From NCBI RefSeq assembly GCF_001677475.2, contig NZ_CP015229.1: a DNA stretch of 64,000 nucleotides; one strand, 5' to 3'. Positions 61,649-63,346 of this stretch are shown here, piece after piece. Origin of the DNA: Escherichia coli (GTDB lineage Bacteria; Pseudomonadota; Gammaproteobacteria; Enterobacterales; Enterobacteriaceae). Positions within the stretch are counted from its first letter, which is position 1. Each line of letters opens with the position of its first letter. The position numbers and the translations under genes were made by a program. The notes beneath the pieces are model-generated. The model saw nothing but the letters and a program-made list of their open reading frames with translations, was not told the DNA's origin and did no database searches.

Positions 61649-63346
61649 ATGCAACTGCAACATGGAAAAAATAATACACAGCAATATATATTTGGCGACT
61701 TTGTATTAAAAAACAATGGAATATTATTATTCAAAAATAAAGAATATCATATTCCCCCGAAAGAACTTGGCGTTATCATTCTATTACTTAATGCTGACGG
61801 TGAAATTGTTAGCAAAGAAGAGATTATCGATAAGGTCTGGAGCGCGAGTGTTGCCAGTGATGAATCTTTAACACGGTGTATTTATGCATTGCGCAAACTT
61901 TTGCATGAGAATAAACAGTGTAAGTATATCGAAACGGTCTATGGTCGTGGATACCGTTTTACTGTCCCCATTGTGATTGTAACCGATAATGAACCGGTAA
62001 AGTCGACCACCACTCTTGCCGTTTTTCCCTTTCGTACTGAAGGTTCGATCAATGTTCTAAAACTCCATTACGAACTTGTCCAGGGTCTTTCAAAATATGC
62101 TTTTTGTGGTTTAGATATTTTACCCGCTTCGGTAACGAATGAGGCCAGTGATTTCTCCACCATCCATCAGTTTATCAATAAAACAGGTCCAGAATATTAT
62201 ATTATGGGTCAGGTCGTTCACTATGGTAAAAACTGGCGTTTATTTATTGAATTAATCCATGCCAGAACGCATAAATTGATTGATCATCAAAGTATTGATT
62301 TCAACCCCGACAATCCTCTTTCCGTTCTATTATCACAAGTAATTAATATTCTCATTGAAAAAATACCCAACATTAATTTTAAATCTATTAATACACAACA
62401 AATGCCATCTCTGGATTCTGCTGTTATGTATATGAATGGCAGAATGGAAATGTACCGTTATACACCAGAAAGTTTGAAACGAGCATTAGTAATATTTAGA
62501 GATTGTGTGAGTACGCAACCGCAAAATACCTTGCCCTACTGTTGCCTGGCGGAGTGCCATATATCATTAGCACTCCTTGGCCTCAGTGAACAAAAACAAG
62601 CAATAACTACGGCAGTAACCTCCATTGAAAAGGCTCTGGAAATTAACCCTTCAAATTCTCAGGCATTGGGTTTACTGGGTTTAATCAGTGGACTAAAAGA
62701 TGAACATTCAGTGTCTAATGTGCTATTTAAACAAGCACATTTACTCAAACCTAATTCGCCAGACGTTTATTATTATCAGTCGCTGTTAAGTTTTTTGAAT
62801 GGCGACCTTGCAAGAGCATTTAATTTAATAGAAAAAAGCATTGCTCTTGAACCAAATAAAATGGGCATAAGCATTCTTAAATTAATTATACTTTATTACA
62901 CATCACCCCTCGATAATGCGATATCTTTTGCGTTAAATCTTAACAGTCAAAACACCTGTAACAATCCAATTATTACCTCTATTCTGGCTATGTTCATGGC
63001 ATTGAAAGGACATAATGACAAAGCCAAAAGTTTATTGCTTAAACTTGAACCTGAACATGGTCTTGATTACACCTGCGTTAACTCGCTTTATACGAAGTTT
63101 CTGATCTATGGCGCATCTATAAAAAATGACATTATGAAGTTACTGGCAAATATTAACACCAACAAAATCAATGGTGTTATTTTGCCGTTGATTTACACTG
63201 TTTATGGTAAAAAAGAATATGAGAAGCGCTGGCAACAATTAATTAAAGATAATGATTTATGGTCAAATGTTTTGCTTCATGACCCCCGTTTGCTCAGTGT
63301 GAAAAATGAATTTAATACTATTGGTGTGATGCGTACTTCTGCGTAA
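61649..63346 (+). CDS. eilA: HilA-like transcriptional regulator (OmpR/ToxR-type winged-helix N-terminus, TPR-like C-terminus)
   Basis: 565 aa; GEIVSKEEIIDKVWSASVASDESLTRCIYALRKLLHENKQCKYIETVYGRGYRF parallels HilA (GEIVSKNTLLDQVWGDAEVNEESLTRCIYALRRIL...YIETLYGQGYRF, recalled); further shared motifs (PYCCLAECH, QALGLLGLI). Confidence 0.85.
   Translation: MQLQHGKNNTQQYIFGDFVLKNNGILLFKNKEYHIPPKELGVIILLLNADGEIVSKEEIIDKVWSASVASDESLTRCIYALRKLLHENKQCKYIETVYGRGYRFTVPIVIVTDNEPVKSTTTLAVFPFRTEGSINVLKLHYELVQGLSKYAFCGLDILPASVTNEASDFSTIHQFINKTGPEYYIMGQVVHYGKNWRLFIELIHARTHKLIDHQSIDFNPDNPLSVLLSQVINILIEKIPNINFKSINTQQMPSLDSAVMYMNGRMEMYRYTPESLKRALVIFRDCVSTQPQNTLPYCCLAECHISLALLGLSEQKQAITTAVTSIEKALEINPSNSQALGLLGLISGLKDEHSVSNVLFKQAHLLKPNSPDVYYYQSLLSFLNGDLARAFNLIEKSIALEPNKMGISILKLIILYYTSPLDNAISFALNLNSQNTCNNPIITSILAMFMALKGHNDKAKSLLLKLEPEHGLDYTCVNSLYTKFLIYGASIKNDIMKLLANINTNKINGVILPLIYTVYGKKEYEKRWQQLIKDNDLWSNVLLHDPRLLSVKNEFNTIGVMRTSA

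Follow-up and report, generated by a model that had tools for sequence, protein, structure and literature searches.

This analysis concerns eilA, the HilA-family regulator of the Escherichia coli eip island, also termed selC-B, near selC, as it stands towards the end of a 64,000-nucleotide (nt) stretch of contig NZ_CP015229.1, referred to here as the window. The ORF list and the sequence show an open reading frame (ORF) that starts with ATG and runs without interruption for 565 codons, preceded by a Shine–Dalgarno sequence that is kept in enteroaggregative E. coli (EAEC) strain 042, E. coli OkiPb01695 and E. albertii. The product is identical at 561 of 565 residues (99.3%), and equal in length, to EilA of EAEC 042, the experimentally studied allele, and scores 951.1 bits against NF009037, the NCBIfam equivalog model for HilA/EilA (cutoff 589; residues 1–552 on model positions 2–553). 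An identical protein is already held at NCBI under the name EilA (for example, ANO91617.1). Of the 5,426 complete genomes of E. coli covered by Megablast, 730 carry the gene at full length, with 94–98.2% identity; all the matching records listed (731 from E. coli) label it eilA and name the product HilA family transcriptional regulator EilA. A pseudogene or chance ORF is ruled out by this annotation, the NF009037 score and the match to 042. We are confident that the ORF, taken as a whole, is best explained as eilA, encoding a cytoplasmic one-component activator of the HilA family. The gene is already known: it is named, curated and experimentally characterised, and is widely used as a marker of EAEC and of extraintestinal pathogenic E. 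coli (ExPEC).

The genes leading up to eilA are, in order, yicI, yicJ, tRNA-Sec, setC, yicL, nlpA, yicS, eicA, an ORF of 60 amino acids (aa), eipB, eipC and eipD, and eilA is followed by the convergent gene air (Table 1). It sits in a segment of 36–38% G+C (56.0–64.0 kb) beside a backbone of ~52% G+C. NCBIfam identifies a SicA/LcrH-type chaperone (eicA) and SipB-like and SipD/IpaD-like proteins among the island products, so that genes of SicA, SipB and SipD type directly upstream link eilA to type III secretion genes of the kind found in SPI-1 (pathogenicity island 1 of Salmonella). The eicA, eipB, eipC and eipD ORFs are all intact and full-length in the window. The same gene order is found in E. 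coli OkiPb01695, 042 and E. albertii; in 042, eicA–eipBCD–eilA–air stands between yicS and nepI. Neither annotation nor NCBIfam places an AraC-type gene between yicS and air in the island. The window end at position 64000 cuts air, and the region upstream of air was examined in related loci only.

Table 1. Features of the eip island and related elements (positions refer to the window unless a locus identifier, L001 to L010, precedes them).
Feature	Position	Strand	Basis or remark
tRNA-Sec	51807..51901		
Third Box A copy, ATGAGCTATTTTTGATA, one mismatch	52319..52335	-	tRNA-Sec–setC spacer, beside rhuM pseudogene remnant
Third Box A copy, same site in other loci	L001 2650-2666; L010 16173-16189	-	
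Box B, CATCAGGATT, upstream of eicA	56183..56192	+	invariant in three diverged loci; candidate EilA site by assignment
-10-like TACATT, 20 nt past Box B	56210..56215		
Stretch shared by eicA and eilA intergenic regions	56303..56322; 61554..61573		
Box A upstream of eicA, ATGAGCGAATTTTGATA	56306..56322	+	62-78 nt before ATG
Conserved TGAAGT, 20 nt past eicA Box A 17-mer	56344..56349		
EilA-dependent operon per literature: eicA 56384-56881, 60-aa ORF 56891-57073, eipB 57129-58910, eipC 58923-60053, eipD 60097-61446	56384..61446	+	ORFs, synteny
Hairpin between eipD and eilA, possible terminator/attenuator	61478..61500	+	-16.1 kcal/mol, z = -4.4, 0 of 200 shuffles as stable
HilA-box-like repeat TTTCAT-tcattt-TTTCAT then CACAATC, candidate EilA autoregulatory site	61525..61549	+	pattern scan, conserved block
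TTTCAT-N6-TTTCATCAC within this region	61525..61544		
Box A upstream of eilA, ATGAGCGTTTTTTGATA, candidate EivF + chaperone site	61557..61573	+	conservation, PsicA/MxiE likeness
-10-like TATTTT, 19 nt past eilA Box A 17-mer	61594..61599		
Shine–Dalgarno, GGAAGGAG	61635..61642	+	6 nt 5' of eilA ATG; read from sequence
eilA coding sequence, HilA/EilA-family transcriptional activator, 565 aa	61649..63346	+	ORF, annotation, NF009037, 042 identity
Winged helix-turn-helix DNA-binding domain, residues 12-111	61682..61981	+	Pfam, AlphaFold2 model, Foldseek, HilA identity
Central alpha/beta domain, residues 121-238	62009..62362	+	AlphaFold2 model, pLDDT about 75-90
TPR-like helical-repeat domain, residues 255-535	62411..63253	+	model helix pairs, Foldseek, NCBIfam/PDB TPR matches 305-465
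13-bp-stem hairpin in 51-nt eilA–air gap, likely bidirectional terminator	63356..63385	.	-23.4/-22.6 kcal/mol per strand, z about -7
air/eaeX (iatC) 3' end, convergent inverse-autotransporter adhesin gene	63398..64000	-	ORF, annotation of syntenic loci
Box A positions	window 56303-56323, 61554-61574; L003 2554-2570, 7909-7925; L004 3614-3630	+	
Box A positions, further loci	L005 8891-8907, 17812-17828(-); L006 8900-8916; L008 2499-2515; L009 3582-3598(-), 5187-5203(-), 45513-45529(-)		
HilA-box-like elements elsewhere	L002 7720-7741(-); L008 7232-7248(-); L006 12003-12019(-); air: L001 24575-24776(-), L003 15040-15303(-)		

An AlphaFold2 model of EilA, with a 44-sequence alignment as input (mean predicted local distance difference test (pLDDT) score 83.4), divides the protein into three parts: an N-terminal winged helix, a central α/β domain and an array of paired helices. 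The sole strong Pfam domain is Trans_reg_C, the OmpR/ToxR winged helix (PF00486, residues 31–104, E = 8e-16), and the modelled winged helix superposes on the DNA-binding domain of CadC (5ju7, TMt 0.85) and on DNA-bound ToxR (8b4d, TMt 0.84, root-mean-square deviation (rmsd) 1.4 Å). Its predicted recognition helix, residues 71–84 by model secondary structure, reads SLTRCIYALRKLL, with SLTRCIYALRRIL as the HilA counterpart; residues S73, L74, R76, C77, Y79 and R82 are the same throughout a set of 44 homologues. A Pfam search gives no family for the central α/β domain. The helical array resembles tetratricopeptide repeats (TPRs). Pfam TPR matches are individually weak (E = 0.006–0.04); TPR families of NCBIfam (PrsT, E = 6.7e-10) match residues 305–465, a region also matched by PDB entries for TPR chains of designed or consensus type, and the top Foldseek matches to the model in the PDB are TPR superhelices (consensus TPR 8chy, the OGT TPR 1w3b, Tom70/71 and NlpI). 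The whole-model Foldseek list also includes CadC's periplasmic sensor domain (3ly9, E = 3.6e-5, poor rmsd), a hint from modelling that the likeness between CadC and the HilA family may extend beyond the winged helix.

Three other identities were considered and ruled out. An OmpR/PhoB response regulator is incompatible with an N-terminal winged helix and the lack of a Response_reg match in Pfam, which would mark a receiver domain; models of that class fit the DNA-binding part only, far below cutoff. A ToxR/CadC-like membrane sensor is rejected on the lack of a predicted transmembrane helix (highest 19-residue Kyte–Doolittle mean 1.42) and a score of 49.6 bits against the CadC model, whose cutoff is 400. 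YgeH, a relative of EilA, is rejected because the protein scores only 229.5 bits with NF008870, where the cutoff is 800.

Comparison with HilA used the database sequences P0122, which heads a 2,553-sequence cluster named transcriptional regulator HilA (Salmonella enterica), and P0164, a member of that cluster whose gene lies between hilD and iagB, near prgHIJK–orgABC and sipADCB–sicA, and hence in SPI-1. EilA aligns with P0122 without gaps over 544 residues at 36% identity (60% positives, E = 5e-129). Identity is highest in the DNA-binding region, at 51% over residues 9–110 and 58% over 31–104, against 22–38% elsewhere (33% over 111–300, 38% over 301–470, 22% over 471–552). An earlier note on this DNA, made from the letters alone, had described an intact regulator with its first 110 residues close to the HilA winged helix and with TPR-like repeats in its C-terminal region. 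Each of these points is borne out: the length is that of 042 EilA, with no stop codon or frameshift; the N-terminal identity and the PF00486 and NF009037 matches place the protein in the HilA/OmpR winged-helix family; and model helix pairs, family matches and Foldseek superhelices agree on the repeats. The note had further proposed the gene as a candidate master regulator of the island. A regulator role is on record for the nearly identical 042 protein, but the candidate is not new, being already annotated as eilA.

Later papers (PMC4210603, PMC7058095, PMC11068852) that cite Sheikh et al. 2006 (Mol Microbiol 61:338) relay that eilA was named and experimentally tested in that work. By their account, EilA of 042 is needed to express eicA, eipB, eipC, eipD and eaeX/air; eivF and eivA, in the unlinked ETT2 (type III secretion system 2 of E. 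coli), are also EilA-dependent; and eilA and eaeX mutants of 042 show reduced adherence and biofilm formation. Huttener et al. 2014 report that 042 EilA restores SipA in a Salmonella hilA mutant by activating invF (PMC4210603). Fox et al. 2020 find the eilA promoter active in sequence type 69 (ST69) bloodstream isolates and induced in LB:DMEM (PMC7058095), and carriage of the eip genes is linked with an intact ETT2 (PMC7058095, PMC11068852).

The transcriptional layout of the window is consistent with such a promoter. Stable hairpins lie on either side of eilA, one of them, between eipD and eilA, having a weak T tail, and eilA should therefore form its own transcription unit, in agreement with the promoter reporter of Fox et al. 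(PMC7058095). A sigma-70 scan was uninformative, with 31 sites against 27.8 expected.

Ahead of both eicA and eilA, the intergenic DNA contains the shared stretch AAAATGAGCG(AA/TT)TTTTGATA, which matches at 18 of 20 bases, the best of 300 shuffles reaching 16. We call the element within it Box A; its 17-nt consensus is ATGAGCGnnTTTTGATA, and it lies roughly 60–220 nt upstream of its genes. Upstream of eicA, a 21-nt block with Box A is invariant in three otherwise diverged loci (EilA 100, 76 and 57% identical), and the copy upstream of eilA is kept in 042, OkiPb01695 and E. albertii. Box A also precedes hilA-like genes in both E. fergusonii and Y. enterocolitica, ygeF–ygeG in ETT2 and, in 042, a gene of the ShET2/EspL2 effector family together with two genes of little-known function between uhpA and ilvN. 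NCBIfam returned no family for four proteins encoded downstream of Box A (the two uhpA–ilvN products, the ShET2/EspL2-family protein and a 202-aa protein of E. fergusonii), and a Pfam search with the 478-aa product alone likewise gave none. No copy was found upstream of ETT2 eprH and eivF, nor ahead of air in either E. coli or E. albertii. Box A thus precedes chaperone, translocator and putative effector genes and not apparatus genes, a distribution that fits a regulon of InvF/MxiE type.

The sequence of Box A and its setting resemble two known activator sites. Its core, GCGTTTTTTGA, is identical to that of the Salmonella promoter PsicA, upstream of sicA, in the database sequence, and a −10-like hexamer follows the box by 19–21 nt in Box A promoters and PsicA alike. 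The InvF site was reportedly defined by Darwin and Miller in 2001, and the HilA box by Lostroh and Lee in the same year. At PsicA the InvF site is reported to overlap the −35 element (PMC7595419). Box A takes up a similar position ahead of its several genes, corresponding to that in which the PsicA and MxiE boxes overlap the −35. Against the Shigella MxiE box, GTATCGTTTTTTTAnAG (from PMC9769918), the eilA copy agrees at 13 of 17 positions; in the MxiE-box literature a putative 13/17 site has been examined and a 14/17 site was sufficient for ipaHa. A strict MxiE-consensus scan of the window (≤3 mismatches) gave only two chance-level matches, both elsewhere, the eilA copy having 4 mismatches. 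Judged by its letters, then, Box A is related to, and not the same as, the canonical MxiE box, and its likeness to both the InvF site of PsicA and the MxiE box points to a step carried out by EivF and a chaperone.

A third copy with one mismatch stands in the spacer between tRNA-Sec and setC, and at the same site in two further loci. It points toward selC, where no credible ORF follows, and may be what is left of the promoter of an effector gene since lost, or a chance match. Our literature search found neither a description of the Box A sequence nor a link between EivF, a MxiE box and the eip genes, though the original EilA paper might hold one.

Box A could be taken to carry the whole of the regulation, with EilA acting on eivF only, much as HilA acts on invF, and EivF, together with EicA or YgeG, activating the eicA operon. 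The element at the eicA promoter is PsicA-like in sequence, orientation and spacing, and it precedes the gene classes that such a step would serve; EilA activates Salmonella sipA through invF (PMC4210603), and eivF is reported, in papers relaying earlier work, to depend on EilA (PMC4210603, PMC7058095, PMC11068852). A cascade of this kind nonetheless leaves aside a second element upstream of eicA, Box B, which is common to the HilA-dependent prgH promoter and stands at an equal distance from a −10-like hexamer. The region upstream of air, moreover, has TCAT repeats and no Box A, yet air is reported to be EilA-dependent, and EivF with YgeG was inactive on MxiE-box promoters in one published test (PMC9241512). 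We regard control by the cascade alone as somewhat unlikely.

Box B lies ~120 nt further upstream of eicA than Box A and matches CCATCAGGAAT in the Salmonella prgH promoter (PprgH); a −10-like TACATT follows with the PprgH spacing. Just upstream of the eilA Box A, TTTCAT-N6-TTTCATCAC resembles TTTCAT-N5-TTCCATCAG of PprgH (TTTCATTCTATTTCCATCAGGAATC). A pattern scan finds similar repeats upstream of ETT2 ygeK/etrB and of the Yersinia LuxR-type counterpart, and TCAT repeats are plentiful ahead of air in both E. coli and E. albertii. Across PprgH, eicA, eilA, air, ygeK/etrB and the Yersinia gene the common forms are TTYCAT repeats ~11–12 nt apart and a block CATCAGGA(T/A)T, the eicA element being a half-site plus CAGGATT. 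The EilA recognition helix is almost the same as that of HilA, and EilA should therefore bind HilA-box-like TTYCAT repeats. These elements suggest that the genes behind them may be direct targets of HilA-family regulators and that eilA may regulate itself.

Direct control had been proposed in the earlier note on the grounds that the island encodes no InvF-like AraC regulator. The observation stands, the island being free of AraC-type genes. The conclusion does not follow from it, because EivF is encoded at the unlinked ETT2 and is itself reported to be EilA-dependent. A direct component at eicA, eilA and air is nevertheless plausible, because HilA-box-like elements lie upstream of all three. 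In its pure form, with EilA alone binding and activating the eicA operon and air promoters, direct control draws on these elements, on a recognition helix nearly identical to that of HilA and on the absence of an AraC-type gene between yicS and air. It leaves unexplained the deeply conserved Box A at the eicA promoter and its copies at unrelated putative effector genes; eivF is present at ETT2 in eilA-positive genomes; and in the Salmonella paradigm the homologous operon, sicA–sipBCDA, is driven by InvF–SicA and needs it. We consider purely direct control improbable.

Taken side by side, Box A and the HilA-box-like elements suggest mixed direct and cascade control with feedback at the eip island, the circuit that we favour as most likely. 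EilA would directly activate eivF and, probably, a distal eicA promoter, and air and eilA's own promoter would probably also be direct targets through HilA-box-like sites. EivF with a SicA-type chaperone, EicA or YgeG, would drive the proximal eicA promoter at Box A, would feed back on eilA through its own Box A and would also act on the putative effector genes. EilA would then not simply be the top of a hierarchy: Box A would be the site of EivF and its chaperone, would define the ETT2 effector regulon and would put a HilA-like regulator under secretion-coupled positive feedback. We advance this reading tentatively, as a possible account of the locus. We know of no report of secretion-coupled feedback on Salmonella HilA.

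Several points weigh against mixed control with feedback. We assigned the boxes from actual Salmonella sequence and from HilA-box and InvF-site positions that we take to be as published; at the eicA and eilA promoters of this allele the assignments are in silico only. Box B matches the promoter-proximal half only of a HilA-type repeat. EivF of O157, together with YgeG, left the MxiE-box genes icaR and icaT unactivated (PMC9241512), and Fox et al. 2020 found no ETT2-secreted proteins in ST69 (PMC7058095). The closest complete genome has pseudogenes in place of several genes of the ETT2 apparatus, and the EilA–EivF cascade may be partly decayed in the window strain.

OkiPb01695, the genome with the closest eilA, carries eivF and ygeH intact at ETT2. 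A frameshift interrupts its eipB, and at ETT2 the genes encoding homologues of EpaO, EivJ and EivA are pseudogenes (L001 7461–9241, L008 15068–20699); eilA and iatC/air are likewise intact, so that regulators and adhesin outlast the secretion machinery. Such a genome speaks for the reading that in the window strain ETT2 has decayed, eilA is kept mainly for Air and for biofilm formation and adherence, and the eip translocator genes are vestigial. The phenotypes of 042 eilA and air mutants, as relayed in PMC7058095, are those of adherence and biofilm, and ST69 strains gave no sign of secretion through ETT2 (PMC7058095). Against an orphan regulator of this kind, eicA, eipB, eipC and eipD are intact and full-length in the window, and the literature ties eip carriage to an intact ETT2 (PMC7058095, PMC11068852). 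We hold this explanation to be unlikely.

If Box A is the site of EivF and its chaperone, as mixed control with feedback would have it, it offers a sequence handle for listing candidate ETT2 effectors genome-wide and could reveal if secretion activates the system, as with the MxiE regulon of Shigella and the InvF regulon of Salmonella. Box A and the feedback it implies are the only possibly new element of this analysis.

The surroundings of the island are ordinary E. coli backbone, with gpmM, envC, the waa lipopolysaccharide (LPS) core cluster, spoT, recG and others. A second block of low G+C (30–38%, positions 12000–21000) is the waa (rfa) LPS core cluster (waaL, rfaG, waaB and others) and not part of the eip island. 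Within the island, the 60-aa ORF between eicA and eipB has no NCBIfam match; OkiPb01695 annotation calls its product hypothetical, that of 042 marks it as frameshifted, and Salmonella has nothing equivalent between sicA and sipB. The window appears to come from a divergent Escherichia lineage, because identity to complete RefSeq genomes of E. coli does not rise above ~97.9–98.7% over the backbone (positions 1–51600) or 98.2% over eilA. A 2026 preprint states that air and eilA are generally carried by strains of Escherichia clade I.

Among known systems, the nearest is that of 042 itself (EC042_4011 region; UniProt D3H2F7). Its EilA differs from the window protein by four substitutions, N9T, S381C, N503S and D534E, and its eilA promoter region is nearly identical, Box A included. 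Strain 042 has a prophage-like selC-A island between selC and setC, whereas the window spacer there measures only ~640 bp. YgeH is likewise a HilA-family regulator of the same type III secretion system, with winged helix and TPR; it is a separate paralogue of 458 aa encoded at ETT2, and window EilA falls below its family cutoff. The 042 allele of YgeH also complements hilA (PMC4210603). ToxR and CadC share a winged helix like that of EilA (TMt 0.84–0.85, rmsd 1.4–2.3 Å, with sequence matches too) and, like EilA, have no receiver domain; they are membrane-bound, whereas EilA lacks a transmembrane segment and has a TPR-like domain that is cytoplasmic. Salmonella HilA has the same three-part architecture as EilA, and both pass NF009037. 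Their settings differ: hilA lies inside SPI-1 near hilD, prgH and iagB, whereas eilA belongs to a small satellite island, at a great distance from the apparatus genes, with no HilD, HilC or RtsA homologues evident beside it. The promoters differ as well, that of eilA carrying an InvF/MxiE-like box where the 400 nt upstream of Salmonella hilA hold only the weaker CAGTTTTTTGAAAT.

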